From a virus, in IMG/VR virus record IMGVR_UViG_3300046170_000505: DNA of 64,000 nt; one strand, 5' to 3'. This document shows, in pieces, positions 14,967-52,800 of the stretch. The position numbers were made by a program, and so were the translations under genes. Each line of letters opens with the position of its first letter. Positions within the stretch are counted from its first letter, which is position 1. The notes below the pieces were generated by a model. The model did not search any database and was not told the DNA's origin. It saw nothing but the letters and a program-made list of their open reading frames with translations.

Positions 14967-15906
14967 ACGTGTTATATGCAAGGTATGCCAGAAATCGTTT
15001 AAAAACGACAAAGGCCTTCATTTGCATCTTTCCAGGATTCACAAGATTCCTGCGGCTGAATATTACGTAAATTTCTACCAGCGTAAAGATAAACACACTG
15101 GCGAGTTTCTTCCTTTTTGCGGTAAGGGACCAACCTTTGTTGAGAAAGGCGTTTATTTTAATACGGATTTTTCTTGCTTAGATAATTTCTATGCGTGGGC
15201 CGAATATGCCCCAAAAGAAGAAGTAAAAGATTATTTAATTAATCAATTAAAATTTAGGATAAATTCTAAAAGTCTTTCTTTTGCCCCTTCTTACTTAGAG
15301 CTTTTATTGCATGACCTACCTAGTTTAAATACTTATAAAAAATTCTTTGGTTCTTATTCCAAAGCATGCTCTTTGGCTGACGCCGAACCATTATTTAATA
15401 AAAAATTATTTAAAAACTTTTTTGAACCTAACGAAAACGTAGACTCAGCAAAGATCCTTATTGACACTCGAGAAAAGAAACCGTTATCTTTCGATAAGTC
15501 TGCATCAATGAAACTTGATTTCGGAGACTATGCTGTAGGGTCTCCGCACTACGATTATACTTATGTTGACCGAAAGAGCGAAACAGACTTCAAGAGCACG
15601 ATGACCATGGGTTATGATCGCTTCAACCGTGAAATGGAAAGGGCTATGGAATTCGATTCTTACTTGTTTATTGTGGTCGAAAGCTCTATAGAAGATATAA
15701 AGCACAATAATATTTATGGCCCCCGAGAATCAAACCTTTCTTTTATTTGGCATAACATGCGCCTACTAACACATAATTTCCCAAGAAAATGCCAATTCAT
15801 TTTCAGTGGAGGAAGGGAAGAGTCTGAGTGGCTGATTCCCAAGCTTTTGGTTTACGGAAAAAAACTGTGGTCTGTCGATATGCAATATTTCTTAGATAAT
15901 CGATGA
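14950..15906 (+). CDS. C2H2 zinc finger + ERCC4/XPF-type nuclease
   Basis: ILIDTREK...LDFGDY...VDRKS..DF ERCC4 motifs; in-frame CKVC..F...LHLSRIH upstream of the tracked start at 15022; start codon uncertain. Confidence 0.75.
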   Translation: MSQSPERVICKVCQKSFKNDKGLHLHLSRIHKIPAAEYYVNFYQRKDKHTGEFLPFCGKGPTFVEKGVYFNTDFSCLDNFYAWAEYAPKEEVKDYLINQLKFRINSKSLSFAPSYLELLLHDLPSLNTYKKFFGSYSKACSLADAEPLFNKKLFKNFFEPNENVDSAKILIDTREKKPLSFDKSASMKLDFGDYAVGSPHYDYTYVDRKSETDFKSTMTMGYDRFNREMERAMEFDSYLFIVVESSIEDIKHNNIYGPRESNLSFIWHNMRLLTHNFPRKCQFIFSGGREESEWLIPKLLVYGKKLWSVDMQYFLDNR

Positions 15907-23879: not shown

Positions 23880-25253
23880 GTGTCAGAACAAGATGAAAGT
23901 CAAAGCAGCGAGGCTAATGAAAGTCAAGATGATGCGGGCTCTTCATCTGAAAGCGCTTTTTCTGTAGTTTCCAGGCAATTAGAAAGTGATGTTTCTGCTG
24001 GAGTTAAGGTTTTCGTCTTAACTCCTGCTTTTGAAAATACGGAAGATCTTTCTGTATTTAGCGTAGGAGATACTGTCGTATTCAATAAAGGTAATGCTCA
24101 AAACGAAGAAACCGCTCAAATAGAATTGCTTGGAGGAAGTTCTATAACCTTAACTCAACCTTTAACTAAAAATCATACAGCAGGCGATTTCGTAACAATT
24201 TCAGAATCTAACGCTGGGAACTTGACTGTTAATCAAACTTCTGTTGTTACTGATTCTTTAATAGTTGGAGATCCCGATCAAAGCGAAGAGGAAAATATTT
24301 TAGAAGTTGAAGATGGTCATATAGCTGCTGATGCAGATATTACGGTACAAGGAGATATTTTTGCAGACGACGCATCATTTGATAATCTTGATATCCAAGG
24401 AGACATAACAGTTCAAGGTGAAACTGTTGACTTAACGAACCTATCAAACAACAATGTTGCGCAAGATTTATCCGAAGTTATAGAGTCAATAAATGAAGGT
24501 TTAAGCGGTGTAGCTGAAGCGATAACTAATAAAGAACATACACACGGCGATAACAGTGATGTTGATCACGATCACGGCATTAGACCAACTCAGCCTTACG
24601 TATCACCAAACTATGCTACAGATCCAACCTCACCATGTCCAAATACTGGATATTACATGAGGGTAGATGAATGCACAAATTGTTATTTTGAAGAAAATTT
24701 AAATCAAATAGGAGCTTTTGCAAAACAATTAGTTGAGTTTGAGTTTGATTATATAACTGGAGAAGCTGCAGTGAGAAGCGAGCTTTACACTATATCTGGA
24801 TCATTAAGCGGTAGGCTTGGAGAGATGAATGTTTTACTGAATCAATCTTTTTGTTATACTGGTTGCGATGGAAACCCTTTTCCTAGACTAGGAAAAGAGG
24901 AGGGTGACATACTGCAGCACCTTTACATGAGAGACTACAACACAAAACAAGCGCAAAAGATAATGCGAGGCCTTTACGACGAAAATACAACAGCTAGTGT
25001 TATTCAGAACGAAGCGGAATGGACTGAACTATCAGAAGGTGATACAACTATCAGAAGAAGCCCTGGAAGCTCTGCTTCATCTGCCAGTAATAGAATCGCC
25101 TTGAGTAAAGATTTTAAAGCTTTATCTGATGATGCCGACAGAAAAATAAAGCAACTTGTTTATAATTATAATATGTACGGAGCACAGCCAAGGCAAGTAG
25201 CTGGTGAAGATGGGGCTTATAAGGCAATAATACAATCAAGAAAAGATAATTAA
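23880..25253 (+). CDS. putative head-tail adaptor with an N-terminal extension
   Basis: Position after capsid; C-terminal WTELSEGDTTIRR...YNMYGAQPRQVAG. Confidence 0.5.
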   Translation: MSEQDESQSSEANESQDDAGSSSESAFSVVSRQLESDVSAGVKVFVLTPAFENTEDLSVFSVGDTVVFNKGNAQNEETAQIELLGGSSITLTQPLTKNHTAGDFVTISESNAGNLTVNQTSVVTDSLIVGDPDQSEEENILEVEDGHIAADADITVQGDIFADDASFDNLDIQGDITVQGETVDLTNLSNNNVAQDLSEVIESINEGLSGVAEAITNKEHTHGDNSDVDHDHGIRPTQPYVSPNYATDPTSPCPNTGYYMRVDECTNCYFEENLNQIGAFAKQLVEFEFDYITGEAAVRSELYTISGSLSGRLGEMNVLLNQSFCYTGCDGNPFPRLGKEEGDILQHLYMRDYNTKQAQKIMRGLYDENTTASVIQNEAEWTELSEGDTTIRRSPGSSASSASNRIALSKDFKALSDDADRKIKQLVYNYNMYGAQPRQVAGEDGAYKAIIQSRKDN

Positions 25254-27271
25254 TTCTTTTCTAATTCTTTTACTCTTTTACTTAAGTCTTTTACTGCTTC
25301 CAATAAGAAAGGAACCAGTTTTGTGTAGTCTACTTTAAAGTATCCGTCTTCGCCTTTTTTAACTGCGCTAGGAATAACCTTTTCAACTTCTTGAGCTATA
25401 AGACCTTGGTCTTCGCCTGATTTATTAGATTCTTTTTTCCATTCGAAATTAACACCTCTTATATTTTCAAGAAATTTTATTGGTGATTGAATAGGAGAAA
25501 TATTTGTTTTTAAATTAATATCAGAATCAACAAAAGTAGGCTCTGAATTAGCCGCAGGTTTATCGAGTTTCTTATCTAGTTCGGTTTGTAAACCACTAAT
25601 ATCTCCTATAGTAACGCCCCCTGAGCCTGAGCCTGAACCTGCGCTAGCCGCAGCTCCAGTAAGTATTTTGTTACCTCCCCAATAAAGCACTGAAGAAACG
25701 GAGTATAGCTTGTTTGTTGTAGTTGTTGGAGCAGAAGCAGTATTGTTTAACTTTATTGCGCCATCGGATTCAATAGTCATTTTATCAGACCCATCAATAT
25801 CAAATTGAATTTTTGAATTTGCTACATTGTTCCCCTCGTCAGCTTGTAAAAGTAAAACTCCGTCATTTGTTCGAATATCGCTATAATTAGAAACAGAGGC
25901 TTCGTCTTTTAAACGAATTGTAGGATTTTCTTCTTTTATTTCCAATTTAACGTCAGGACTATCTGTTCCAATCCCAACCTTGCCGTCGGAGTCTATGCGC
26001 ATTTTTTCTGTAAATGTAGAAAGTGATCCACCTCTAGTCCAAAATACCAAGTCCGCTTTTCGTGAGTTTGCCGTACTGTCCGAGCATACTGCACCGATGT
26101 TTGCCATATCTTCTGAGGTGCTAGAGGTTTTAGGAACCCTAAAGTTTATAAACGGCCCAATGTCTGCCGTTCTCGCAACTCCTTTAGTTTCTAAAATTAA
26201 GTTTGCTCCGCTACCTGCATTTAAAACGCCATAACTATCTGTTTCTATTTCCAACTTAGCGCTAGGACTCGTCGTTCCAATCCCGACCTTGCCGTTTCGG
26301 TCAATACGCATTGCTTCTATTAATGGATCGCCACTTGTACCGCCTTGATGTACCTCGAAAGCTAGTCCTACATTATTTGAGTCCACATCGGTCTGTACCG
26401 CTGTAATTGCCGCGTGTTTACCTCCTGCTCCTGTTAGAGCGGTAAAAGCTACCGAGCCGCCTTTATTACCACTTCCTTCTGTCGTATTACTTTTAATTAA
26501 TAAACCGACTTGACTAAAATCGTTTGTACTAAGTGAGTATGTACCCGCATCTGTTTCTACAGCTAACTTTGCATCAGGACTCGCCGTTCCAATCCCGACA
26601 TTTCCTCCATTATAAACTATATCACCAGAAGAGTTTCCATCTACCCACTTTCCTCCCTGACCTTCAGTTAAAATCTTAGAACCATTAAAGTATAGACCGT
26701 CAGATTTTCTATAAATTTTTCCATCTGTTGGTGCTGGATCACTAGCTACCTCATTAAAGGTTACTGGATTCGTGAACGTTGTAGGTCCACCAAAATTAGT
26801 AAGCCCAGTAAAAGTTGTAATTCCGCTTAAAAGACTTGTGCCTTGCGCATTAATTCCACCAAGAGTCGTAATACCTTGGGTTACAGAGAGGCTTTTATCT
26901 ATAACCACATTTTCTTTCAATGATATTCCATCATCGGTAACCTTTATTTGTTCTTTACCTCCTTGTTTTATAACGACTGGAGGCTGAGTTGCTAAAGGTT
27001 GTCCATTTTCGTCTAAAATCACATCTCCAATCCCTACGTCAATACCGCCTTCTTCATTTTCAGAAACAGGCGGAGAGCTTCCTATTGTCGGTAAAATAGC
27101 TTTTCTAAGCTGAGAGATAGTGGTTTTTACAGTTATCCTTGGATTAAAATCGTTAGGGTCTTCTGATTCTCTTTTGACATCATTTTCATTAAGCGATAAA
27201 GCTAAATAACTATTGTCTGTAACAGTGTTATCTTCAGTAGAGTCGAGGTTTCTAATTTTTATTGTTTGCAT
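25250..27271 (-). CDS. tail fibre with C-terminal intramolecular chaperone (peptidase S74-type)
   Basis: Repeated GNVGIGTxSP / MRIDxxGKVGIGT; SDINLKTNI...GLIAQEVEKVIP...VDYTKLVPFLLEAVKDL. Confidence 0.85.
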   Translation of the reverse strand: MQTIKIRNLDSTEDNTVTDNSYLALSLNENDVKRESEDPNDFNPRITVKTTISQLRKAILPTIGSSPPVSENEEGGIDVGIGDVILDENGQPLATQPPVVIKQGGKEQIKVTDDGISLKENVVIDKSLSVTQGITTLGGINAQGTSLLSGITTFTGLTNFGGPTTFTNPVTFNEVASDPAPTDGKIYRKSDGLYFNGSKILTEGQGGKWVDGNSSGDIVYNGGNVGIGTASPDAKLAVETDAGTYSLSTNDFSQVGLLIKSNTTEGSGNKGGSVAFTALTGAGGKHAAITAVQTDVDSNNVGLAFEVHQGGTSGDPLIEAMRIDRNGKVGIGTTSPSAKLEIETDSYGVLNAGSGANLILETKGVARTADIGPFINFRVPKTSSTSEDMANIGAVCSDSTANSRKADLVFWTRGGSLSTFTEKMRIDSDGKVGIGTDSPDVKLEIKEENPTIRLKDEASVSNYSDIRTNDGVLLLQADEGNNVANSKIQFDIDGSDKMTIESDGAIKLNNTASAPTTTTNKLYSVSSVLYWGGNKILTGAAASAGSGSGSGGVTIGDISGLQTELDKKLDKPAANSEPTFVDSDINLKTNISPIQSPIKFLENIRGVNFEWKKESNKSGEDQGLIAQEVEKVIPSAVKKGEDGYFKVDYTKLVPFLLEAVKDLSKRVKELEKN

Positions 27272-35318: not shown

Positions 35319-38300
35319 ATGAGCACAAAGCTTCAAATAAAATGGAACTTGCCTGCGGATTTAAATAACATCGCGGCCAGTATTTTATATAGAGCTGAAG
35401 ACCCAAATCAAAATAAAAGCTGCCAAGACGTGATTAACACAGGTTCTGTATTGTTAAAAGACCCAACAGCACCTTTTCAAAACAATTATATAGACGAAAT
35501 AAAAGATAAAGGAATTTATAGGTACGCAGCTTTCGTCGAGTCTCATAGTGGTGAAATGTCAGAGTGCGCAACTTTTGTTTATCAATATAACGATAATGTT
35601 GATGTTACCATAATAACCGACAAAAACCAAGCTACAGTTCAAAATTTCGGGGCAGCCCAAGAAGATGGGAACGATTTAAAATATACCCAAACAGTCGTAA
35701 AAGGATCAGATTTAAACTTAAGAGATTTAATCATCCCTAATTTATCAGAAGGATATGCTATCAAAGAAGTTTACGTATTTACTGGAAATAATAATACAAA
35801 GCTAGATGGAGCACCTACCATAACAATAACAGAAGATACCGAAGTATCAGTCGTTTGTCACAAACAAAAATATACAATAACCATAAAAAGGGATGGTGAT
35901 TATTTTAGAAGTACTAAAAATGGAGAAAAAGTTTATAAAAATTTAAAAGCTGGAAATCTAAAAGGTATAAGTTCCTCTATGGAAAAAGACAAAAAAGACT
36001 GTTATGAGTTTGATAAATATACAGCAGAAGGAAATGCAGATCCTTACGGTCAAGAAAAATATGATCCAAACAAATCTAGCACAAAAATATTAGTAGATCA
36101 AAATTACGTATTAAGCGCTAGTTACAAAGAAAAAATATCAAAATTAAAACTTTCAAGCAATATTCCAGAAATAGGAGAAGTAAGCGGGGAAGGAGAATAT
36201 TCGTGCTTTGATAACATTGCTTTGGTTGCGAAACCTATCTCAGAAAAAACAAAATTTAAAGGTTGGACAATAACTCGAGGTTCTAGCAAAATAAGAGAAG
36301 GTGATCCAGAATCTGTGCCAGAAGGACTAACCTCCATAACTGTAAATTACAACGATTTAAAGATAGAAGGTAATGTAGATTTAAAAGCTACTTTTACAAA
36401 AGTTTTTCAAATTGTTTTAAAGATAATGGGGCCAAATGGTATAGAGGGATCGAGCACAAGAGGCTCCATATCTATTAGCGCTAACGATCAATCTACTTCT
36501 GGCAATACTATTACGGCTAACATAGAAAGCATTAATAACCCTTTTGACATAGCGGCAACTAAAAAAGGCTCTCATCGATTTGATGGATGGGAGTTAATAA
36601 CAGGAAATGTAACTGGAGCATCTTTAGCAAATTCATCCATTAGTATATTAAGCGATGCCGAATTGCATGCTATATTTATAAAATATTTCACCGTCTTCTT
36701 AAGAGTTTTTTCTACTGGGGTAAACGGAGCAAGTACTTTGTCTAATACCTCATTAAATGGATACGATGAAGTAAATAATCAGCTCTCTTTAAATTACGAC
36801 ACTGTCAAGCCTGCTGGAAAATATCAATTTGAAAAATGGGCTGTTGATCTATTTTCAACTCAGCCAGAATACACAAGTGAAAACTTATCGCACACTCTAG
36901 ATGATGATGCTATAGTAAAGCTATACGTGCTTGAGATTTATTCTTTAATATTAACATCAAATATTCCATCCGCTGTTAATTTAACAGGCCAAGGTGATTA
37001 CGTTTTTAGAAGCCATGAAAATATAAGTATATCAGTCACACTAAATAGTCCTACTGTTGCCCCAGCTTACAATTTCCTTAATTGGCAAAGCCCTCAAAGC
37101 CTTAGTCTTCCAAGCGCTAAATCTGGGACAGTCAGTATTGTAGAAGACACAACCATAACAGCAAATGTAGAAACTACTAAATATACATTAACGGTATCAA
37201 GCGAAGATAACTCTAAAGGAACTGTATCTAAAACTGGCGGTCCTAATTATAGTGTTTTTGATAGTATCACAATTTTAACCAGCCCCAAAGGGAATAATAT
37301 ATTCCAGAAATGGGAGGTTGCCTCATCTGATTATACTTTAAGTGTTGGGGATGATTTTAATGCAACGAGCTTTAATTTAGGAGATTATGGAAACTTGAGC
37401 TTAAAAGCTTACTTCTTGGCTGTATATGTGTTAACGGTAAAATATTATGAAGACGGAGTAGAGAATACTTCAAAGCAGGCTACTTATTCGAGAAAAGAAA
37501 ACGAGTCAAGTTCAATAACCGTAAGCCCATTAAATGTTTCAGTTGGACATGAATTTGATAGGTGGGAAGTGCAAAGTGGCAACGTTACCATAAATCAACC
37601 AGAAGTTTTTGGGGATAAAACAATAGATCTTACAGAAGACGCTGTTATAGAATTTCATGCGTTAAGAAGTAATGAATTAACATTATTGATAGACTTGCCT
37701 GGCGCAGCAAGTTTTTCACATGGAGAAGCTAATAATTTCTTTAGGAGTACAGAAGATATAGATATTGAGCTTTCATTGAACAATGCTAATGCCGCCATAC
37801 CTACTTATCAATTTTTAAATGATTATAGCACTACAAAATCAAGTCTGGTTACTGGATTAGTAAACAGTCAAAAGTCAAATACCATAAGAATTTCTGGGGA
37901 CGTTTCTATAACAGCTCATTTAGATTATGTTTTATATGACTTTTCTGCTACAGTAGATCCTATGAGAGGGAGCATTGAGGGCACATCATCCAGCGGTAAA
38001 TATAATACTCTAGAATCAATAACCTTGAAGGCTGAACCAATTGACCCTGTAAAAAATATTTTTAAAGAGTGGAGGGATTCAAATGGAAACTTGTTCTCAA
38101 CAACTCAAAATACTTCTATTAATTTAGCTGACTATGGAGATCTTGCACTAGAGGCAATATTCGACAATAAATACAGCCTTAATATTACAATAGAATATCC
38201 AGACGCAGATAATGTACTCACCACCAGCCTGTATGCTGAAGATTCTGATGTTACCGTAGACATTGAAGCTTCCATTAATACTGGCTATAGATTTTTGAAC

Positions 38301-41300
38301 ATGACCATAAATCAGGGGGCGGAACAGTCAGCGTTAACTGATTTAAATCAAAAGTTCACAATGGATAAAGACTACGAAATAGTGGTAGAGGTGCAAAAAG
38401 TTTTCGTTCTCTCTCTTTCTATAAATATTCCTGGAGCAGGTTCACTTTCTGGGGCAGGAGGGTATTTATCTGAAGAAAATATTAATATACAAACTATACC
38501 AACTATTAACGCTTCAAATATAAGTAATTTTTCTTTTTTAAATTGGAGATTAGTGATCGGGACATGGGGAGGCGGTGCAGGTGGAAACGATCACTCATCT
38601 GCTACTACAATAAGAATAACTGCAGATACAGAAATAGAAGCTATGTACGAAGAATCGCAATACGTACTAACATTGCAATCAGAAACAAACCAGGGAACCG
38701 TAGGATTTTTAAACGAATCAAAAAGCGCTAGTGTTTCTAAAACATTAAATGCCACACAAAATGCAACGATAGAACACCTAGCATCCAGTGGGTATCAGTT
38801 TTACCAATGGGAAGTGGTATCTTCTGAAGCGGGATTAACAACTGGATCGGTTTTTAGTGGGAGCTCAAATTTTAATCTATCATTGTATGGAAACTTAACA
38901 CTGATAGCTAGATTTAAGAAAGAAATAAAATTTACCAAAAATGTTTATGTTGGAGGGTCACTAAACTCATCACTGAGTATAGCCGAAACAACTCTTCTTG
39001 AAACAACAAACGAAGGAGGGACAGCTAAGATCAATGTAGAGTGGCCATCTCTTAACGGATACACTATAGATAGGGTGGAAAAATCAGGAAGTCAATCTTT
39101 TGACGAGAATAGTACAAGCGATCAAGAAATAACTATAAATAAAGATACTACTCTAAACTTTTACTTAAGACCTCTCGAGACCTATACTTTTACAATAAGA
39201 AAAATCTTAGACAGTGAATCACCCGTAACTGAGGATACTCAAAGTGTAACAGAAGGAGGCAGCCCCCTTGATGTGCCTCCAATAACAATACCTGCTGGAC
39301 AGGTTTTTGTATCATGGAGTCCATCAGTAGCAAACGCAGACTTACCCTCAGATTTTTCAACATGGCCAGAAAATGAAAGAATAACCTTAAATGAAAACTT
39401 AACCTTAACATACAATTTAAGAACCCTTGCGACCTATACTTTTACAATAAGAAAAACGCTAGATAATGCAGGGTCACAGCTTGTTAGCTCTGACGTTTTT
39501 ACAGAAGGACTCAGCACTCTTAATGTGCCTTCAATAGGAATACCTGCTGGGCAGGCTTTTGAATCATGGGAAATAACAGAGGGAGATGCAGGTGCAGATT
39601 TAGGGCCAATACAAGGCAAAGAAGATTGGCCAGTAGGAGAAACAATTACGCTGACTAAAGACGCAACCTTAACATACAATTTGAGAACTTTACAGGGTTA
39701 TGTTTTTACTATCAGGAAAATAGTAGACAACGGATCACCTACAAATGTGTCTACTCAAAATGTAATGGAAGGAACCAGCGAAATAACCATACGGTCAATT
39801 GATGTCCCTAGCGATCAAGAATTTCAAAACTGGGAAATAACGCAGGGTACCGCAAGCGCTTTATCCTCAGAACCTTCGACGGTTTGGCCTGAAGACAAAA
39901 AAATTACTTTAACAGATAATGTTACTATAGATTATTTGGTATACCAAGGACATGAACTTTCAATAACAGCGGAATACCCTACAGCGTACCCTCAAAGTTC
40001 GCCTGATTTTTCTTATAGTCATAACGTTAAAAACGATGCAAGTAATACTGGACCGTATTTTTTAGACGATTTAATATCATTAAGTGTTACCCCGCCAGAT
40101 CATCTTGACTTTGATGATTGGGGTTTAATTTTAGGAACTTTACAAGGAAATATTCCTTCTACATCATCTTCAGATATACAAATAGAAAGCGATGTAACTC
40201 TGCGGGCCAACCTTAGCTTCAAATTATATTCTTTTACTATTGTTCAGGGGGCAAACGGAAACACTTCTGGAAGCACAAACAATGGAAGCTATAATGCTTT
40301 TCAAGATATTACATTAAAAGCAAACGCAAACTCTAATTTTCAATTTTCAAAATGGGAATATGAAGTTTCTGCGGATAATTGGCAAGACTTTAATGCTTCA
40401 GCTTCTGACATTATAAGGTTAACTGAAGATGTTAAAATAAGGCCAGTATTCATAGGAATACCTTATACCTTAACAATAATTATAAATGATAACAATTCAT
40501 GGGGATCAGCAATAGGAGCTGGAACTTACGAATACAATCAATCAGTAGATATATCTGGCATCCCAAATCCAGGGTACAAGTTTTTAAGATGGAGTTTTAC
40601 TGATGGAGAAGAGCCTGGAGATTTAGACACGTCAGAGCAAAATCAAACAATACAAATAAAAGGAGACGCAACCTTAACTTTAATTCTTGAAGAAATACCT
40701 TTACCTCAAGATGGAAACGGTAATAAATTAATACCTATCCTCTCTTCTGCAGGCAATAACGGGGTAGAAATAGATAGAAATATGCTTGCAATGACTAAGG
40801 ATGGCGCAGCTGTAGTCATAGTTTCGCAATACAAACCAACGCTTGATAGATTAAAGGCGATAAGAGATGTTAATAATTTACCGTCGTCTGCAACAAAGTA
40901 TACTCCAGCTATTAGGGTTATTAATAAAGATAACGATCAAAACCAAATAGAAGCTATATTGCCGCTTTTAAACAGTACTGCTGCATCAGGAGGCTACAAC
41001 CTAGGAGCAGAAGGAGTATCAAAATTAACGTTGAACGCTTTGTCCGCAACGAACTGGGAAAAAAGATTAGAAAAAAGTAATATCGCCTCATCCCTATCTG
41101 TCTCGCCAGATGGAAGCAAAATAATGCGAGGCGGCCCAGGAGACAAAGGGATAACTACTAGCTTTATTCTGGGGGGTTATGCAAATTATTACGGGTCTAC
41201 AGAATATGGGAATTTAACCCTTGGGACGGTTACGAACATTAATAGCGATGGAGATATAGGGGCAATAGGTTCAGGAACAAATACAGCTGGGGGCGTGAAT

Positions 41301-42638
41301 ATTGACCATATCGCTAATGCTTCGACTATAGATTTTAGTTTTAGCAGGCAAAGTAGTAAAACTTTTTATGGAGCTTCTATATGTATAGCTAAGAATTATG
41401 CGGCTTATTCTGCCCCAAGCAGCATACAGCAAACTTTACCCATTCAGCACAATACAACTAGTGGATCAGGGAGTGGCGGTTTTCCAGGATATCAAAATGT
41501 TAATCCAACAAGTATATTTAGTTCGAATACTGAGCTAGTACCCAATAATGCAAATGTAATACATGTCGTACCCAATAACCATTTAAATAATACAGGTATA
41601 GATATGCCTGGGCCAAAAAGAGGACTCGTGGATGTAGATTTTGGAGTTCAGGGGCACGAAAGAGACGAAGAAGATTATATAGTTTTTGACTTGGGATCTA
41701 GAGATATCGGAGGAGAATCTAATGATGGATCGTGGTCTCAATTTGGAAGATCTGTAGACGTATCAAGGGATAGTCCTACGCTAGAAAATTCTTCAGTAAC
41801 TAACCCTATATTTATTGCAATTACATCGGTATGGAAACCGAATAATTCAAATGAAACGTATACATTTTGGACCAGAGGCTATTCAATAACAAAAATAATA
41901 GGGGTATACAAAGAAGGTTCCACTATTCACAAAATGGGAATTGGATATCATGATGGAGGCAGTAGTTCAATTAAAATTCCTGATACAACAAGGACTATGA
42001 ATAGTTACATGTCAAACTGGAGCAATAAAGAAATATATGCAGACCAGGAACCCCTTATAGACTATAGATTTTCTTTTGGAAACAATATAAATGGAGTGTA
42101 CAACACAGAAAGTGATTATGGACAAAAAGTAAGATTATCCCCAGACGGTTCAATAGCCGTAATAAGTAATTCAAGAACATCGAATCCTGATGAAGACAAC
42201 ATACTCTATGAAGATGATAAATTCGGGGAAGTAAAAGTACTATTGAGAAAACCTATAACAATCAATCATAATAGTAATACCTATGAATGGTTTGAGTATA
42301 AAAATGTACAATCAATACGGATACCTGATGGCGATAATGATCTTTCAGAATATACAAAGCGAGACTTTGCTTATGATATAGCTTTTGATGGAAATTACCT
42401 TGCTGTATCAACACCAGTCCATCAAACGGTTTATCTATATAAATGGAACAGTACTTCAGAGGAATTCGATTACTGGAATAAAATATTTATGACAGACTCT
42501 CTTCCAGGGGCTGGTTATATTAATTTATTCGGAAAAGCAATCGTTTTTGATACTAGAGAAGAAGGTGTCGCCACCAAAATAGCTATATCTGGAAACGAGG
42601 CGTTCTTTGTGTTAGACATACCAACTCAAGAAACATGA
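35319..42638 (+). CDS. 2439-aa virion adhesin/fibre: many InlB-B/Flg_new-like beta repeats + C-terminal beta-propeller
   Basis: Recurrent Y.LT....G...G.G.Y...GY.F..W....T.I.....L.A.F units; FGRSVDVS/YGQKVRLSPDG/FGKAI propeller blades. Confidence 0.7.
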   Translation: MSTKLQIKWNLPADLNNIAASILYRAEDPNQNKSCQDVINTGSVLLKDPTAPFQNNYIDEIKDKGIYRYAAFVESHSGEMSECATFVYQYNDNVDVTIITDKNQATVQNFGAAQEDGNDLKYTQTVVKGSDLNLRDLIIPNLSEGYAIKEVYVFTGNNNTKLDGAPTITITEDTEVSVVCHKQKYTITIKRDGDYFRSTKNGEKVYKNLKAGNLKGISSSMEKDKKDCYEFDKYTAEGNADPYGQEKYDPNKSSTKILVDQNYVLSASYKEKISKLKLSSNIPEIGEVSGEGEYSCFDNIALVAKPISEKTKFKGWTITRGSSKIREGDPESVPEGLTSITVNYNDLKIEGNVDLKATFTKVFQIVLKIMGPNGIEGSSTRGSISISANDQSTSGNTITANIESINNPFDIAATKKGSHRFDGWELITGNVTGASLANSSISILSDAELHAIFIKYFTVFLRVFSTGVNGASTLSNTSLNGYDEVNNQLSLNYDTVKPAGKYQFEKWAVDLFSTQPEYTSENLSHTLDDDAIVKLYVLEIYSLILTSNIPSAVNLTGQGDYVFRSHENISISVTLNSPTVAPAYNFLNWQSPQSLSLPSAKSGTVSIVEDTTITANVETTKYTLTVSSEDNSKGTVSKTGGPNYSVFDSITILTSPKGNNIFQKWEVASSDYTLSVGDDFNATSFNLGDYGNLSLKAYFLAVYVLTVKYYEDGVENTSKQATYSRKENESSSITVSPLNVSVGHEFDRWEVQSGNVTINQPEVFGDKTIDLTEDAVIEFHALRSNELTLLIDLPGAASFSHGEANNFFRSTEDIDIELSLNNANAAIPTYQFLNDYSTTKSSLVTGLVNSQKSNTIRISGDVSITAHLDYVLYDFSATVDPMRGSIEGTSSSGKYNTLESITLKAEPIDPVKNIFKEWRDSNGNLFSTTQNTSINLADYGDLALEAIFDNKYSLNITIEYPDADNVLTTSLYAEDSDVTVDIEASINTGYRFLNMTINQGAEQSALTDLNQKFTMDKDYEIVVEVQKVFVLSLSINIPGAGSLSGAGGYLSEENINIQTIPTINASNISNFSFLNWRLVIGTWGGGAGGNDHSSATTIRITADTEIEAMYEESQYVLTLQSETNQGTVGFLNESKSASVSKTLNATQNATIEHLASSGYQFYQWEVVSSEAGLTTGSVFSGSSNFNLSLYGNLTLIARFKKEIKFTKNVYVGGSLNSSLSIAETTLLETTNEGGTAKINVEWPSLNGYTIDRVEKSGSQSFDENSTSDQEITINKDTTLNFYLRPLETYTFTIRKILDSESPVTEDTQSVTEGGSPLDVPPITIPAGQVFVSWSPSVANADLPSDFSTWPENERITLNENLTLTYNLRTLATYTFTIRKTLDNAGSQLVSSDVFTEGLSTLNVPSIGIPAGQAFESWEITEGDAGADLGPIQGKEDWPVGETITLTKDATLTYNLRTLQGYVFTIRKIVDNGSPTNVSTQNVMEGTSEITIRSIDVPSDQEFQNWEITQGTASALSSEPSTVWPEDKKITLTDNVTIDYLVYQGHELSITAEYPTAYPQSSPDFSYSHNVKNDASNTGPYFLDDLISLSVTPPDHLDFDDWGLILGTLQGNIPSTSSSDIQIESDVTLRANLSFKLYSFTIVQGANGNTSGSTNNGSYNAFQDITLKANANSNFQFSKWEYEVSADNWQDFNASASDIIRLTEDVKIRPVFIGIPYTLTIIINDNNSWGSAIGAGTYEYNQSVDISGIPNPGYKFLRWSFTDGEEPGDLDTSEQNQTIQIKGDATLTLILEEIPLPQDGNGNKLIPILSSAGNNGVEIDRNMLAMTKDGAAVVIVSQYKPTLDRLKAIRDVNNLPSSATKYTPAIRVINKDNDQNQIEAILPLLNSTAASGGYNLGAEGVSKLTLNALSATNWEKRLEKSNIASSLSVSPDGSKIMRGGPGDKGITTSFILGGYANYYGSTEYGNLTLGTVTNINSDGDIGAIGSGTNTAGGVNIDHIANASTIDFSFSRQSSKTFYGASICIAKNYAAYSAPSSIQQTLPIQHNTTSGSGSGGFPGYQNVNPTSIFSSNTELVPNNANVIHVVPNNHLNNTGIDMPGPKRGLVDVDFGVQGHERDEEDYIVFDLGSRDIGGESNDGSWSQFGRSVDVSRDSPTLENSSVTNPIFIAITSVWKPNNSNETYTFWTRGYSITKIIGVYKEGSTIHKMGIGYHDGGSSSIKIPDTTRTMNSYMSNWSNKEIYADQEPLIDYRFSFGNNINGVYNTESDYGQKVRLSPDGSIAVISNSRTSNPDEDNILYEDDKFGEVKVLLRKPITINHNSNTYEWFEYKNVQSIRIPDGDNDLSEYTKRDFAYDIAFDGNYLAVSTPVHQTVYLYKWNSTSEEFDYWNKIFMTDSLPGAGYINLFGKAIVFDTREEGVATKIAISGNEAFFVLDIPTQET

Positions 42639-43762
42639 GCAATAACTTTAAATACCAACTTTTAGCGGACTGGGATATACCTTTGCATACAAGTGATATC
42701 GAAGCAGTCATGCTATTTAAGGGGAAAAACATTAGAGGGTGCAACTTTCTATACAACGAAGAATTAGTATTTGAAACAAAAAATTTAACAATAACTAACT
42801 ATGTGGATGAAGTAGAGGGACCTGGAGTCTGGGCTTACGCAGCATATTCAAGAGATTTCAAGGGTGGTTTAACTTTATGCGCAACTAATATATGCGAAAT
42901 ACATGATACCTTGGGAATTATTGTAAATTCCGACCATGGATCTGTGATAGGGACTTTGAGAGGCTTTCCAGGAGATCTTCTAGATATAGATTTAAAAGTG
43001 GATTTCGGTTACGTATTTACAGGTTGGGATTCTGATGATTATACTTTTGCGGACCCAAGCCTTGTCGCTCAATCTATACTGCTTGAGAAAACTATAACTA
43101 TAAACGCAAATTTCGAACCTGCAAAGTTTAATTTATCATTAAGTAGCGTGGTTGATGAAAACGGAGATCCAATAGGTCTGGTTGACGAAACTTTATCTGG
43201 ATTAAAAGATTACTTATCTGACGCTCCAATAAAAGCAATTAATACAGATTCACACGAATTTACAGAATGGATAGGTATAAATATAACAGATAAATATTCT
43301 ATTGAAACAACGATAAAAATAGACAGAGACAACATAATTGCCACAGCAGATTTTCAAGCTGTTGAGCTAAATTTTAATTTAAGTGAATCAGACGGAATAC
43401 CTTTTGCGCTAGAAGATGATTCCGTAGAAGAGGAAACAGTGGTTATTGTAGAAGGAGATTTTGATTCATTTTCATACGGAGAAGAACTTGAGGCATCATT
43501 TTTTATTAGCGAATACACAGATGAAAACGACGAGTATGTATTTAGATACGATTCCATAGAGCATGATGGAGATTATGACGGTGTACCAAAATACAAAATA
43601 GATGAATTTACTTACGTAGATGAAAACGGAAATGATATAAAAGATCAGATACAAGATTTAGATGAAGAGTATGACGAAGAATATGGCGAATACTATGTTT
43701 ATTTCACAATAAATAAAAATGTAACAATAAAACCTATTATATCTGAGTATGACCCCACTTAA
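42635..43762 (+). CDS. short paralogue of the adhesin N-terminus with InlB-B-like repeats
   Basis: Similar N-terminal W..P...Y.DE....G...YAA domain; GYVFTGW repeat. Confidence 0.65.
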   Translation: MSNNFKYQLLADWDIPLHTSDIEAVMLFKGKNIRGCNFLYNEELVFETKNLTITNYVDEVEGPGVWAYAAYSRDFKGGLTLCATNICEIHDTLGIIVNSDHGSVIGTLRGFPGDLLDIDLKVDFGYVFTGWDSDDYTFADPSLVAQSILLEKTITINANFEPAKFNLSLSSVVDENGDPIGLVDETLSGLKDYLSDAPIKAINTDSHEFTEWIGINITDKYSIETTIKIDRDNIIATADFQAVELNFNLSESDGIPFALEDDSVEEETVVIVEGDFDSFSYGEELEASFFISEYTDENDEYVFRYDSIEHDGDYDGVPKYKIDEFTYVDENGNDIKDQIQDLDEEYDEEYGEYYVYFTINKNVTIKPIISEYDPT

Positions 43763-43818: not shown

Positions 43819-46800
43819 ATGGCAGTAAGAGCAAATGTTGATCTAAAAGTAAACATGGCTTCAGTAAAACGAAGCATGGATCGCGCTGCTAGAGAAGTAA
43901 ACAAAACCGTACAAAATGTTTCAGGGAAAGATATATCTTTTAATGTAAACGGAAAAAGCTTTACTCAGCCGCTTGGTAGAATTACATCGTCTGCAAATGA
44001 ATTCACCAAATCTTTAGAAGCTTCTAATGCTCGTGTTATAGCGTTTGGAGCTTCAGTTGGAATAATTAATGCAATAACAGATTCTTTTAAATTTTTAATT
44101 GCAGAAACTGTTAGGTTTGAAAAAACCCTTCAAGATATTAACGTGGTTTTAAATTCCTCAAATGAGCAGATACAAAAGTTTGGACAAGGTTTATTTGATG
44201 TAGCGCAAAACACAGCTCAATCTTTCAATATTGCCGCTGACGCCGCTCTTGAATTTTCTCGTCAAGGTTTAAGCGTAGAAGAAGTTTTAAAAAGAACTAA
44301 CGATGCCCTCACATTGACTCGTATCACAAGCTTAGATGCGGCTGAAGCTGTTTCTGGATTAACTGCCGCAGTAAATGCTTTCGGGGAAGCAGGTTTAACT
44401 ACAACGGATATTATAGATAAACTAGCGGCTGTAGACGTAAAATTCGCTGTTAGCTCTGAAGATCTAATTAACGGTCTTGAGCGGGCTGGCGCTGTTGCTA
44501 TTGATGCTGGTGTTGACCTTGATAACTTAGTTGGAATTATAACTTCTTTGCAGCAAACAACTGCTCGTGGTGGTGCGGTTATTGGTAATGGACTTAAAAC
44601 TATTTTTACGAGAATCCAAAGGCCAGAATCCATCAGGCAGCTAGAAGATATGGGCGTTGCAGTTAGAACTCTAACTGGAGCAGTTCTTCCAGCTGACAAA
44701 GTCTTAAAGAATATAGCAAAAGGTTTTGAAGAACTATCCCAAAGTCAACAATCAAACATTGTTCAGTTTGCCGCTGGAATATTTCAAGCTAATATTTTTA
44801 GAGCCGCTCTTACTGACTTAGCAAAAACTCAAGGTATTCAACAGCAAGCTACTGAAATATCAGCTAACGCAGCTGGAGAGGCAGCTAGAAAAAATGAACT
44901 TTTAAATAAAAGTATATCCGCTATGGCTTCGCAAGCTGGTTCTGGATTAAAAGAACTAGTAGGAATAATGGGTGAATTGGCGATAAAGCCAGAGCTAGGC
45001 GAAGCAGTTGGAATATTTGGTAATGCTATAGAAGGCTTAAAAAATGCATTAGGAGGAGGAGAAGACGAAGGTAATGCGTTTGCAAAAGGTTTAGTTAGAG
45101 GTATTGGGAATGTTTTGACTGGTCCAGGAGTTATAGCTTTTGCGGCTATTTTTACAAAACTTTTATTTAATGTTTTTAAGTTCGCTTCTGGTTCGTTAAA
45201 AGATGTTTTAGGAATAGTAACTCAAAAAGAAAAAGTTAGGCAAATTGAAGAGTCTATAGTCAAAGTATTAGGCTCAAATGTTCAAGTAACTCAAGCTTTA
45301 AATCGACTTGAAGGAGACAGGATTGCTCAAGAGCAATACATACTGGGGATAATAGAAGCTCAAACAAATGCGCTTGCAAAACAACAACAACTCGCAAGCA
45401 AATTAGGCCCCGCTCTTTTAAAAAGAGGGATAACTCCAGATCTTAGTTACGATAATACCCCTGGTACGCTTGTTGATATCGATGGAGATGGGGTGATTTC
45501 AGGCGCTGGAGGTATTTTACCTCAAGAAAAAAATGCAGAAAGAAAAGGAGCCATAGAAGGAGGCTATAGCCCTGGAAGAGTAAACAAAATGAAAGTCCCT
45601 GGAATGGGTGATGTTATTTATAATACCGCCGAAAAAGTAAAGAATTTTGAGGGAATGAAACAGCCTGCTATTATGCCGCCACAAAGCAGTAGGGCTGGAA
45701 GAAACTATAAAGAAAAATTTTCAGAAAAACATGGTTTTGATCCTTATGCTAGTGGAGGACTTATTCCTAATTTTGTGCCCAGAAAAGGCTCTAATGTTGA
45801 TAAGGTTTACCAATTATTAAAAAATGCCTGGTTGTCTGAAGGGTACAGAATGACAAACAAAGAACTTACAGATGCCACTGGCCTTCCAGGAGCCCCTGAT
45901 AATCCATATAAAAAAGCCAATTCAAGCTTTAATAGAGATTTTGGAGCCAAATTAAACAAAGCTGGATACACTGTTAATACAAGACCACGCACAGAATACT
46001 ACCAATACTTACCAACGAATAAAGAAAAAATTGCAAAATTTATACAACGGGAGCAAGACCCCGCAAAAAAAGGAATTGCGACAATAACCGATGACGAATT
46101 AATGGATAAATTTTTAAAACAAAAAATTTTAAAATCCGCATCTGGACATCATTTTCAAGCCGCAATTGAAGCTGGAGGAAGATCTAAAGTATCTTTTGCA
46201 AATTCAGTTACATCTTACAGAAATCAATTCGTCAACGAAGACAAGCTTGTAGCGCCACCAATATATTTAAAAGATGATTCAACTTACGTTGGCCCACCTA
46301 ATTCTAGTCCATGGGCAAATGTATCATTAGAATCTAAGGGAAAGTCAAAAGTAAATGCTACTGGCAAAGAAATTGATAGTGTTTTCAATGGTATAAAAAA
46401 CGGAGCTCCTCAAAGTTTTTTAGGTTTAGATAAAAGGTTTGATATAAACCCACTAACTAAAAAAGAACTAGCCGACTTCAAAAAACAAAATTTTAGCGCA
46501 AATGTTGATCATTATGGATTTGCTAAAATGCAAGGAAACCCACCAAAACCCGTTTTTTTAAGTTATAATACTTTAGCAAATGCGCCTTATAGCTTGAACG
46601 CGAATGGATTTGAACATGCAATTTCAGATTTTAAACGTCGTAAACGAGGACTTGCGGGATCTCCTCTTGATTTTATAGATGTCCCTGGAGAAGCTAAATT
46701 CGGACCAACAGCATATAAAAACACCCTTGACGAGCATTTAACAGGAAAATTTTTAAGGCACTTAATTGGCACTGACTCAATATCATGGCCACCACGAGCA

Positions 46801-49800: not shown

Positions 49801-52800
49801 TTATATGCTCGTGAATATTCACTTAGCGATAGCAACCTAAAAGAAATGACGTCTGGAGTTTACAGTTCTGGGAATTTAAGAAAACTAAGGGTTATGAGTA
49901 GAGCTTTCGAGGCGAATAATGAAATGCCTGATCAAAATGACGAAGAGTGGGAAGATGATCTTGTCAATAATTCAGGAAATGGATTTGATGATGCTTCTGA
50001 TGAAATGGAAGGCAGGCTAGGCGCATATTCAAGACTAAGAAAAACCCAAAACCAAAATCGTTTATGGAAAAATAGTATGGCTGGAACTATAAATAACCCA
50101 CTACCGTTAGCAACATATAAGACTAATGAAATGTTTGGGCCTGGCTACATTATACCTGACTTAGGCGCTCTTGATATTTATCAAGATGGATTTACAACCG
50201 AAGATGATAAAAAAATAAGGTCAATATTCTCTCCAAATTTAAATCGAGATAATCATCTAATTGAAAGAAAAATATCCGAAAAGCATTTAGACAATAAAGG
50301 GTTTTCAGAAATGTTATCTGATGTAGCAAAAGATCCAGAGAAAGCAATGAATGCTTCCAGAAGAATGGGGATTGAGGGAATAAAAGAGCATGTTGATAAT
50401 CAAAGCAAAGGTTTAGTTCCTAATTTTGCTTTTGACCCAAACAGTTTTGAAAAAAATAAACGAGCAAGGAACGTTCATGAACAAATGTTCGGAACGCTTG
50501 ACAGCAGAACAAAAGATATCCAAAATCGAAACCAACTTAACAGAGAGAAAGCCTTGCGCGGAGAAGACCCAAAACTATTCGACAGGCATTACCCTGATCC
50601 AATCTTAGGACAAGCAAGAAATAAAATAATCAATGCCCCAACTGGAGGAGGAGAGAAAAATGTTGCTCAAGCTATCAGATCATCAAAAAGGATTGAAAAA
50701 TCCAAAAAAGAAGAATTAATAAAACAAATAGGAAGCCAAAGGCTCAAAGACCTAGATGAAAAATACTTAAATAAGTCAAACAAAAATAGTCATACGTCAA
50801 GACTACAAAGATTTGTAAAACAAAGAAAAGATCTTGAATCAGCTATTCAAAGTGAAAATTTTGAAAAAGCTAGAGAAATCAAAAATGCAGACTTTATACA
50901 AAACGAAAAAATTTACAACGAGTACGCGAACTATTTAGGAGAAACAAGATATTTAGACTCCGATGTTTCAACAGCAAAAAGAGCTCAAGAAAGATTTGGT
51001 AAAAATCCTCATTCAGACTCAATGAATGATCCAAACACTTTAGGGTATTATCCAGGTATAACAAAATCTTATGGAGTTCCAGGAGAAAAATCTATATCTT
51101 ACAATCCATACCAAACCGATTACCCTAAAAAAGGCCCAAGATCATTTAGAAACTCTGGTTTAATACCAAATTTTTCTAAAGTTTCAAGAACGATAAAATC
51201 TCAAGAAGATAGGGTCAAGGGTAAAGGAGAGTTTATTGGAGGCGGAGTAAGTGAAAGGGATAAAGACATAGCGTTTAATATGTTTGATCATTTCATTTCT
51301 AAAATCTCAGGGTTATCTAGCTCTTTTGGATTAAACGAAAGAAGAATGTCTTTAACTGGCACCGCAGAAGACAGAAACTTAATTGAAACATTTAAAACTT
51401 CAGGCAAAAGCGAAAAAGATTTAATTCAAATAGCGGGAAGCCAAAGAAAACTTAGGAATATATTAGACGGCTACATGCTCGGGCATTTTGAAACTTTATT
51501 GCTAGCAAAAGGAAAGTTCAAACAAGCAGAAGACCCTTTAATGCAAGGAGATCTTAGTAAAGGTTTGGTGCCTAATTTTGCGGGCATGGACTTATACAGG
51601 GGAGTAATAAGAGACAAGGGAGCTAAATACAACAAAAAAGATGTTTTTGAACTAACTCCCAAGAGGCAAAAACAATTCGCATCTAGTTCGATAACCAGCA
51701 TAGAAGATCTTAAACAATATTTGCTTGGACATACGGATAATCAAAACGCATCGTCCCTAGTATCTACATCAACTCAAAAAAGCGTAGCCATGGAGTTTGC
51801 AACAAGCAAGGATTCTTCAAAGCAAGGGTTAGTATCAAAAGAAAACATGAGTTTTAGACGTATGTACAATCCTAGAAAAGTAGAAAAATTGCTTAATTTT
51901 ATGATGGACAGAAAAGGCTGGTCGGAGGCAAAGTCAGTTCAGTGGTTTTTAGAAAACGCTAAAAATAAAGACATCGGATTTCACATAAAAAGGTGGATGG
52001 ATGAAGGTAGTAAATTAAAAAAACAAAATGAGTTTGAAGATGAAGTAGCACTGCTAGGAAAGCAAGCTTTTACTGACAGAGACAACTTAGCCCCTTTTTC
52101 AAAAGGATTAACTCCTAATTTTGCAAACCCTCTTTCAGACGCTTTACAAAGAGAAAAATCGGCTGGCGTACCTAGTTCAAGAATCAGGGTAGAAAAAAGT
52201 TCTCAATTAAAAAGCCCAATGAATCCAATGGGTCTTGCAGTCACAAACACTCGTGATGAACCAGGTGGATTAGCTCAAGGAATAAGAAGAGCCAAAAAAC
52301 AAGGAATAGACCCCAAGAGACACGGCATTGATGTTCCAAATTTTGCAACTCCAGTAAGCAAAGATCAATTTGATAAAATTTTGAATGATATTGTATCTAA
52401 AGCAGAAAGTTCATTTAAGGACATAGAAAAAACCCTAGATGACATTGAGCTAGGAGATTTAGCTAAAGATCTTAAAAAGAAATTTGATGATTCAATAGAA
52501 GAAGCGAAGAAAACAAAAGATACCAAAAAAGTTCTAGATATAAAAGACGAAGCTGAAACCATCAAACAAAAAGGGATAGATAAATTTACAAAAAACCCTA
52601 AGCAAATACTTGGTTCGAATAGCCAGCATTCCATTGGAGCCACAAAAGATAATGCAGACAAAAAGATGGCGCAGCTCGAAGAAGCAACTAAAAAATTAAC
52701 TTCAAGTATAGAAGAAGCCGATATAGAAGTACAACAAAACACAAAAAGCCAGGGGGACAACTTAGTCAAACTTTTTGCACTTCAATCCATAATTAGTACT

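Follow-up and report, generated by a model that had tools for sequence, protein, structure and literature searches.

Exchangeable, linker-delimited domain cassettes in the tape-measure protein of an uncultured aquatic phage: a candidate effector array

Background

MARTX toxins of Vibrio and relatives are giant translocated proteins in which unrelated effector domains are shuffled between conserved flanks, the unstructured linkers being the release sites; these toxins, of bacterial origin, have RTX repeats and contain an internal cysteine protease that inositol phosphate activates. Polyvalent proteins, for which injection has been proposed, include ADP-ribosyltransferase (ART), GNAT and kinase domains among their parts (Iyer et al. 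2017, PMC5512222; PMC7824862). The tape-measure protein (TMP) of phage T5, pb2, forms a metastable trimer in the tail tube, from which receptor binding causes its expulsion (Linares et al. 2023, PMC10038345). Cleavage after R1127 separates a hydrophobic stretch from the enzymatic domain, and the piece that is cut off is retained in the tail (PMC10038345). The present analysis concerns a TMP gene (43819..58974, + strand) in a stretch of 64,000 nucleotides of IMG/VR virus record IMGVR_UViG_3300046170_000505 (the window), the product of which carries a row of domains separated by a short repeated peptide. An original prediction, made from the letters alone, had read this row as a candidate injected toxin polyprotein and had known of no description of such an array. 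This agrees with the literature searched, in which no linker-delimited multi-domain TMP array was found, nor in the text of PMC5512222, where the word 'tape' occurs 0 times.

A linker-delimited array in a phage tape-measure protein

The TMP gene is uninterrupted over 5,051 codons, and its product is assigned as the TMP of a tailed phage on the basis of both its family matches and its position in a tail module. Indeed, the TP901 TMP domain (PF10145) was found at aa 117-316 with 90 bits versus a cut-off of 33 (E 2e-25), and several PHROG tape-measure families matched aa 10-455 (best E 3e-48). The surroundings of the gene are those of a lambda-like tail module, with a large terminase gene (15903-17777) and unannotated open reading frames (ORFs) in the usual head-gene positions upstream, and a gpM-like PF05939 protein and minor tail PHROG matches downstream; in the syntenic relative L038, a gpL-like PF05100 gene follows. 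The source is a large uncultured aquatic siphovirus-like phage, and the same TMP was retrieved on a 142-kb JGI contig by a metagenome protein search.

The pattern [IVT]PN[FY] occurs 13 times in this TMP (aa 649, 1035, 1153, 1227, 1482, 1745, 1907, 1938, 2200, 2449, 2584, 2765 and 2839), 11 copies having the full form G[LF][IVT]PN[FY] and two being degenerate (NVIPNF and IDVPNF). No copy of the full pattern was found elsewhere in the window in all six frames, and with a looser pattern the remaining long ORFs of the window yielded a single TPNY. The motifs bound 12 segments of 380, 112, 68, 249, 257, 156, 25, 256, 243, 129, 175 and 68 aa, which as an array contain more Pro/Gly and aromatic residues and less E/K/Q/L/A than the rod that follows. 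Synonymous codons differ between the copies (CCT/CCA/CCG, AAT/AAC, and several Gly, Leu, Val and Ile codons), indicating that the linker is conserved at the peptide level. In 51 related TMPs, the consensus [AS]-x-G-[LF]-[VI]-P-N-F-A is present in 430 copies, 73-fold above the expectation from composition. The Asn of this motif hardly varies; where it does, Ser is the most frequent replacement (12 PSF versus 430 PNF), as in GLIPSF at the m1/m2 junction of P0003, a relative with 92% identity. In the window TMP and in its near relatives, no motif lies in the rod; copies in or beyond the rod occur in a few distant relatives. Hence, the linker-delimited array at 45757-52344, from the first to the last motif, is real, and the linker is indeed kept as a peptide while its codons vary, both as originally predicted. 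The prediction of about 11 unrelated modules holds as far as the array is concerned; the count is 12, and not all modules are unrelated, as m1 and m4 share a catalytic-core motif.

Exchange of cassettes among relatives

The 51 relatives, metagenomic TMPs of 2,790-7,487 aa, were obtained by a search with TMP aa 640-2860, and each of them contains 5-24 motif copies. Cutting these proteins at the motifs and clustering the pieces into module families revealed a constant N-terminal core, last module (~71 aa) and rod, and variable internal modules. The latter, 372 in number, fell into 82 families and were arranged in 46 distinct architectures. Arrays comprise 4-22 modules in the relatives, compared with 12 in the window, and vary several-fold in length. 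Without any pre-cutting, 47% of the BLAST alignment ends inside the arrays (n=6,590) lay at most 5 aa from a motif, versus 5% for random positions, and the median distance to a motif was 6 aa versus 52 aa. Furthermore, the closest independent relative, L038 (the contig of P0003; ~88-93% DNA identity over 30 kb), has an array that differs solely at aa 1486-2198, one unrelated module being present in place of m5-m8, and the two borders of homology coincide exactly with motif copies. A cassette array with exchange at the linker is a solid result. The check on homologous TMPs that accompanied the original prediction came out in its favour, since linkers and flanks are fixed and the number, identity and order of the modules vary.

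The pattern V[TAI]N[TR]RDEP of the terminal bracket, used to scan IMG/VR, was found in 351 contigs. The best 80 of these 351 contigs all contain motifs upstream of the bracket, with 4-11 copies in all but four. The resulting 131 arrays (51 TMPs and 80 IMG/VR loci) comprise 740 modules in 126 families, 54 of which are singletons. TMPs with a core identity of just 35-48% still contain 3-9 motifs; Firmicute TP901 TMPs contain zero.

Several further differences were seen among these proteins. A second stretch without nucleotide homology to L038 (56397-57396; TMP aa 4193-4526) is found towards the C-terminal end of the rod, outside the motif array. The distant relatives P0044 (7,487 aa), P0036, P0041 and L016 have extra motifs and a bracket-like module of 85 aa near the TMP C-terminus, beyond the rod; P0044, with 22 modules, has motifs within the rod region as well. 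Tandem duplication of modules was observed in P0046, P0045, P0004 and P0044, namely of four 28-aa mini-modules, two 77-aa modules, two m3-family copies and three copies of a family of 160-190 aa.

Modules of the array and their candidate functions

Two small conserved modules, one at each end, indicate that the array is an insertion site enclosed by brackets. The N-terminal bracket module (aa 570-646; 45526..45756) is present in all relatives and ends in ...HGFDPYAS ahead of the first motif (alignment A12). In distant relatives, this module is also preceded by a true motif, and in the group of the window this preceding motif is decayed to G-x-I-P-[EQ]. The terminal bracket m12 (aa 2769-2836; 52123..52326; NPMGLAVTNTRDEP...GIDPK.HG; alignment A11) closes nearly every array and was found by BLAST in 46 rows of the 51-protein set; its ratio of nonsynonymous to synonymous substitution rates (dN/dS) is 0.04. 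It is followed by degenerate motif 13 (IDVPNF, 52327..52344), where the array ends. Both brackets have a common extended junction, G-x-D-P...G-x-V-P-N-F (hhalign E 4e-6). A derivation of the bracket modules from a common C-terminal TMP motif was considered and rejected (hhalign E 0.1); the brackets share only the extended linker with each other.

Between the brackets, linker 1 (GLIPNF, 45757..45774) leads to m1 (aa 653-1032; 45775..46914), whose C-terminal half is PD-(D/E)xK-like, with an invariant PLDFI...GEAKFG (alignment A6). Linker 2 (GLIPNF, 46915..46932) is followed by m2 (aa 1039-1150; 46933..47268), which has no functional assignment and belongs to a family occurring in 31 of the 51 relatives. 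Between linker 3 (GLVPNF, 47269..47286) and linker 4 (GLVPNF, 47491..47508) lies m3 (aa 1157-1224; 47287..47490), a small module with no functional assignment that is tandemly duplicated in P0004 and shows a dN of 0 at a dS of 0.22. The next module, m4 (aa 1231-1479; 47509..48255), is predicted to be a globular alpha/beta domain and is PD-(D/E)xK-like. Linker 5 (GLVPNF, 48256..48273), which is the left breakpoint of the L038 cassette swap, separates it from the protein-kinase-like m5 (aa 1486-1742; 48274..49044). Linker 6 (GLIPNF, 49045..49062) introduces m6 (aa 1749-1904; 49063..49530), after which degenerate motif 7 (NVIPNF), a 25-aa spacer (m7) and motif 8 (GFIPNY) together occupy 49531..49641 and are followed by m8 (aa 1942-2197; 49642..50409); neither m6 nor m8 has a functional assignment. 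The right breakpoint of the swap is linker 9 (GLVPNF, 50410..50427). Downstream of it lie m9 (aa 2204-2446; 50428..51156; dN/dS 0.09), linker 10 (GLIPNF, 51157..51174) and m10 (aa 2453-2581; 51175..51561; dN/dS 0.12), the family of which occurs in 18 of the 51 relatives; m9 and m10 again have no functional assignment. Finally, linker 11 (GLVPNF, 51562..51579) and linker 12 (GLTPNF, 52105..52122) flank m11 (aa 2588-2762; 51580..52104; dN/dS 0.10), which is ART-like of the R-S-E type, with YRG, S-T-S and E-D-E invariant.

None of the window's own modules matched a family in Pfam, PHROGs or NCBIfam, and PDB profile searches with the ART-like, kinase-like, m4 and second ART-like families returned chance rows only. 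The identities that follow are probable ones, read from invariant residues and distant similarities. A first one is that of an ART. In the m11 family (alignment A9; 7 sequences down to 43% identity), R15, S70, S72, E161 and E163 are invariant, in keeping with an R / S-x-S / E-x-E triad. The same triad is invariant in a second ART-like family (cluster 6; alignment A13), which is the module standing in for m5-m8 in L038, and both families are homologous (hhalign probability 94%, E 1e-7). By language model, m11 has only ART clusters as neighbours (NarE, Scabin-like, Pertussis_S1 and Enterotoxin_a; 0.92-0.94), which is a lead; no ART match for m11 was found in Pfam, NCBIfam or PDB profiles.

A second probable identity is that of a protein kinase for m5 (alignment A3; 8 sequences, all at least 71% identical), in which IGNGMES...VVYK, DVHSGN and IDF are invariant. 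These motifs correspond to a Gly-loop plus Lys, a catalytic loop with the D-x4-N spacing of kinases, and a DF(G)-type Mg site, respectively. The language-model neighbours are Kinase-PolyVal, Phage_T7_kinase and OspG (0.91-0.93). An hhalign comparison with T7 gp0.7 aligned 19 residues of the Gly-loop and nothing more, and m5 had no kinase match in Pfam (PF18762 included), NCBIfam or PDB profiles. Thirdly, m4 is probably nuclease-like. Its family has D166, E178 and K180 invariant in 29 sequences down to 20% identity, and its fold matches, although weak, are enriched for FAN1 and restriction endonucleases; a Foldseek search of the PDB with the m4 model gave no match. The m1 family is related to the m4 family (hhalign E 7e-5), the PLDFI...GEAKFG of m1 corresponding to the m4 core. 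The ART, kinase and PD-(D/E)xK modules of the original prediction are consequently retained as probable: the ART on the invariant residues of two related families and the language-model neighbours, the kinase on its motifs and neighbours, and the nuclease on the invariant D...ExK and weak fold matches. By contrast, the UVR motif that had been read in m9 was not recovered, PF02151 not being among the Pfam matches for aa 2205-2450 at E<=1.

Recognizable families were encountered in the relatives. Pfam searches revealed SNase (E 1e-7), GNAT (E 8e-7) and three helix-turn-helix (HTH) families, PHROGs searches polynucleotide kinase (PNK), endonuclease and ParB-like modules, and inspection by eye a Walker A motif (sub-threshold AAA_33), a HAD D-x-D-x-T motif and a G-N-H-R ParB-type motif. 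One module of 146 aa (L042:2261-2695; cluster 13, P0005:2104-2249 and others) is HAD-phosphatase-like, with DFDETL, ILTAR and LIDDAPEN, and had no Pfam match. Such a palette has been described for polyvalent proteins and also for host-takeover factors of phages (PMC5512222, PMC7824862). No module matched a peptidoglycan hydrolase in the Pfam searches of the window TMP and its relatives.

A phmmer search with aa 1566-2765 against 1.84 billion representatives yielded 17 matches, most of them motif-bearing TMPs or TMP fragments, indicating that the domains of the window are nearly private to this TMP family. Scans of IMG/VR for further ART or kinase modules gave no new sequences. One protein, P0066, was considered as a stand-alone module homologue and rejected, as it is part of a frameshifted TMP on a polished long-read contig.

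Selection, folding and cysteine avoidance

Compared with L038, dN/dS is 0.00-0.35 in eight of the nine shared modules, with values of 0.00-0.12 in m3, m9, m10, m11 and m12 and of 0.31-0.35 in m2 and m4; it is 0.31 in the rod and 0.06 in the N-terminal core. The dS values range from 0.03 to 0.53 between modules, which is a sign of separate histories. Structure modelling was done from single-module alignments. The model of m4, based on 29 homologues, is a mixed alpha/beta globule with a predicted local distance difference test (pLDDT) score of 82 and a predicted template-modelling score (pTM) of 0.82. In this model, both flanking linkers have a pLDDT below 50, so that the linker is predicted to be flexible and to lie outside the m4 fold.

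The window TMP contains 0 Cys in 5,051 residues, versus an average of 0.78% in 30 neighbouring ORFs, and the arrays contain 5 Cys in 67,434 residues (51 relatives) and 2 in 63,091 residues (IMG/VR loci). TMPs without arrays are equally Cys-free, for example 0 Cys in 1,449-3,547 aa versus 0.3-0.9% in neighbouring ORFs (loci L003-L033), and two Firmicute TMPs have 2-3 Cys versus about 2% in neighbouring ORFs. The acquired domains obey the Cys rule of the TMP body, whatever their fold. This fits modules that share the fate of the TMP, being stored in the lumen and passing through the envelope, and fits release as ordinary cytoplasmic enzymes less well.

Other parts of the protein and genomic context

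The constant N-terminal core (aa 1-569; 43819..45525) contains, besides the TP901 domain, a hydrophobic segment (aa 428-457) and a decayed motif copy near aa 565. The rod (aa 2843-4500; 52345..57318) is rich in E/K/Q/L/A and poor in Pro/Gly (47% and 6.7%, respectively, at aa 2841-4500), helix-prone and without a Pfam match, and includes a Gly/Ala-rich stretch near aa 3070-3130. The C-terminal region (aa 4501-5051; 57319..58974; dN/dS 0.10) has two TMP end motifs of the type G-x-D-x-V-P...G-E-x-V.

Directly upstream of the TMP gene (35319-43762, + strand), two overlapping genes encode proteins of 2,439 and 375 aa, both with divergent InlB B-repeat (Flg_new_2) domains. This slot is the usual place of tail assembly chaperone genes; no tail assembly chaperone-like pair with a frameshift was identified in it. 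On the minus strand, a tail fibre gene (25250-27271) encodes a C-terminal Peptidase_S74 intramolecular chaperone domain and forms, with two further minus-strand ORFs, a block inside the otherwise plus-strand structural module.

Matches to the TMP core in a genome collection (L001-L027) are all contigs in aquatic bins of metagenome-assembled genomes with inconsistent taxonomy. Flavobacteriaceae/Flavobacteriales are most frequent among these bins, which also include Halobacteriovorax, Neomarinimicrobiota, Cellvibrionales, Saccharibacteria and Nitrospinales, and the contigs are probably phage contigs that were binned with bacteria.

Proposed mechanism and alternative explanations

The reading favoured here, with a probability of about 0.62, is that of a polyvalent effector array built into the TMP and carried into the host. 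We infer virion storage, cytoplasmic delivery, enzymatic activity and the role of the linker as follows. A cassette site would have been acquired between the constant TP901-type core and the helical rod, where two bracket modules would enclose a variable row of independently folding domains, joined by the flexible x-G-[LF]-[VI]-P-N-F-A. Recombination within the short motif-coding stretches would insert, delete, duplicate or replace whole domains, so that each phage would obtain its own set from more than 120 families. Many of these domains resemble enzymes that may take over or disarm a host, such as ART, protein-kinase-like proteins, PD-(D/E)xK and SNase nucleases, GNAT, P-loop/PNK-like and HAD-like phosphotransfer enzymes, ParB-like proteins and HTH proteins; 'host-takeover or anti-defence effectors' is a better term for them than the toxin of the original prediction. 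TMPs are held metastable in the tail lumen and are expelled into the envelope before the DNA; the array would ride in with the TMP and act in the newly infected cell before phage gene expression. Indeed, the array is most likely carried into the next host by the TMP, by analogy with T5 pb2, which is expelled from the tube with receptor binding.

As to the linker, it may serve for processing, with a possible cut at the invariant Asn, or be no more than a flexible junction for packing and threading. Asn-X maturation cleavages in several animal and insect virus capsids make self-cleavage at Asn chemically plausible. A bolder version, in which the linker would be a dedicated release site (self-cleaving at Asn or cut by a host or virion protease) and the TMP a programmable cartridge that injects a strain-specific enzyme cocktail into the cytoplasm ahead of the genome, throughout a lineage of aquatic phages, is considered doubtful.

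A number of points weigh against a delivered effector array. First, most module families match no known family. Secondly, the tail lumen measures ~4 nm, and it is estimated that ~2,200 residues of globular domains (25-30 kDa each) in three chains would be hard to fit in it, unless stored unfolded or serially. Thirdly, no Pfam peptidase family was found anywhere in the TMP and HExxH was not consistent in any module family, on which grounds a protease module embedded in the TMP was rejected as a candidate. Fourthly, no cultured phage with such a TMP was found in the phage collection, the best matches being 26-28% identical over the TP901 core only. Fifthly, m1 is exceptional in having a dN/dS of 0.95, at a dS of only 0.03, its neighbour modules having a dS of 0.18-0.29; this suggests either a recent cassette transfer between the window phage and L038 or relaxed or positive selection. 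Lastly, the AlphaFold2 (AF2) model of m11 was unusable (pLDDT 46; 7 sequences). In favour of functional domains, as assumed in the original prediction, stand the confident globule of m4 and the purifying selection in eight of the nine shared modules.

The alternative that survives best, albeit as an improbable one, is that of a late polyprotein, the array being cut out at its linkers in the producing cell during tail assembly (compare lambda gpH and T5 pb2). The freed enzymes would then act late in that cell, for example in breakdown of host DNA or modification of host proteins, and would not be carried onward. TMPs are known to be trimmed by proteolysis in tail morphogenesis (PMC10038345), the linkers are predicted to be disordered and thus accessible, and the folded array would probably be too bulky for the tail lumen, all of which would suit such a route. 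However, the near-total Cys avoidance that the modules share with the TMP is hard to explain for purely free cytoplasmic enzymes, the cleaved enzymatic piece of T5 pb2 remains in the tail, no protease was found in the TMP, and three TMP copies per virion represent a low dose for enzymes that act late.

Somewhat less probable still is that the modules are structural filler, adding length or bulk that tunes tail length or ejection reach, with the motif as a docking site for a tail assembly chaperone or the tube wall. It is established that TMP length sets tail length, so that the several-fold variation in array length and the many modules without recognizable function could be read in this way. 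Yet, catalytic-type residues are invariant at 20-45% identity, most modules are under stronger purifying selection than the rod, and SNase and GNAT domains were found at the Pfam level in relatives. In addition, the motif is placed at domain junctions rather than along the rod of the window TMP and its near relatives, even if a few distant relatives have copies there. An array acting in the periplasm or cell wall at penetration, rather than in the cytoplasm, is the least probable, for although known enzymatic TMP domains are muralytic (such as T5 pb2 and the SPbeta-type TMPs annotated as lytic transglycosylase) and Cys avoidance fits exposure to an oxidizing periplasm, no module matches a peptidoglycan hydrolase and the recognizable ones (ART, kinase, GNAT, nucleases and HTH) need NAD+, ATP, acetyl-CoA or DNA, all of which are cytoplasmic.

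Should the effector array indeed be delivered, phage tails would inject a large and rapidly exchangeable set of enzymes, which would add a route to host takeover or anti-defence before phage gene expression, besides head-packaged proteins. It would also raise the physical question of how ~2,000 foldable residues per chain are stored in the tube and threaded out. The family is common, as indicated by the 351 IMG/VR contigs with the bracket pattern, and its arrays, with more than 120 domain families, most of which match nothing known, are a catalogue of candidate effectors whose domain borders are already marked. The conserved junction and brackets further suggest a natural cassette site and a possible way to load foreign proteins into phage tails.

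Comparison with known systems

Polymorphic toxins (CdiA with VENN, Rhs with DPxGL, and MuF toxins, PMC5576092) likewise have a short conserved peptide that marks the border of recombining cassettes. They end in one terminal toxin accompanied by an immunity gene, whereas the TMP array has many internal cassettes in series. Immunity genes are not expected in a lytic phage.

Among published ideas, the TMP-derived reconfigurable effector of actinobacterial contractile injection systems (Sle1; Nagakubo et al. 2026, PMC13277306) comes nearest; there, a TMP-derived scaffold holds an exchangeable domain, which is packaged in the tube and then ejected. Sle1-type effectors have one C-terminal domain, belong to a phage-tail-like particle rather than a phage, and have no repeated linker or multi-domain array. 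Among phage TMPs, the maturation of T5 pb2 and lambda gpH invites comparison; pb2, a TMP with an enzymatic domain, is cleaved at a defined site that separates this domain, stored in the tube and expelled at infection. Unlike the 12 modules in the N-terminal half of the window TMP, none of which is muralytic and which are joined by a repeated Pro-Asn-Phe junction, pb2 has a single muralytic domain at its C-terminal tip and is cut after Arg.

As to function, the closest likeness is to polyvalent proteins (PMC5512222), with which the window TMP shares many unrelated effector-type domains per polypeptide of a mobile element and extensive shuffling. Polyvalent proteins have 2 to 15 unrelated domains per chain, compared with 12 segments here. 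The common palette comprises ART, GNAT, kinase, ParB-like and nuclease domains, with the restriction that profile-level matches occur in the arrays of relatives only and that the window's own modules are assigned by motif or language model. Entry into the host together with the DNA is proposed for polyvalent proteins and the TMP array alike. Polyvalent proteins are, however, head- or ejection-associated and usually contain a zincin peptidase (MPTase) for self-processing, whereas the carrier here is the TMP, in which no peptidase was found; in addition, the TMP array has one conserved peptide at every junction and two flanking brackets, unlike polyvalent proteins. The likeness to MARTX toxins concerns architecture only, as there is no sequence relationship and no RTX repeat or cysteine protease family of Pfam matches in the TMP. 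Since neither the peptidase of polyvalent proteins nor the protease and repeats of MARTX toxins were found, the array is a member of neither class, although it would work like the former and is built like the latter. TMPs with one muralytic domain are a known class, which the present family widens to proteins with as many as ~22 non-muralytic cassettes and a junction peptide dedicated to them.

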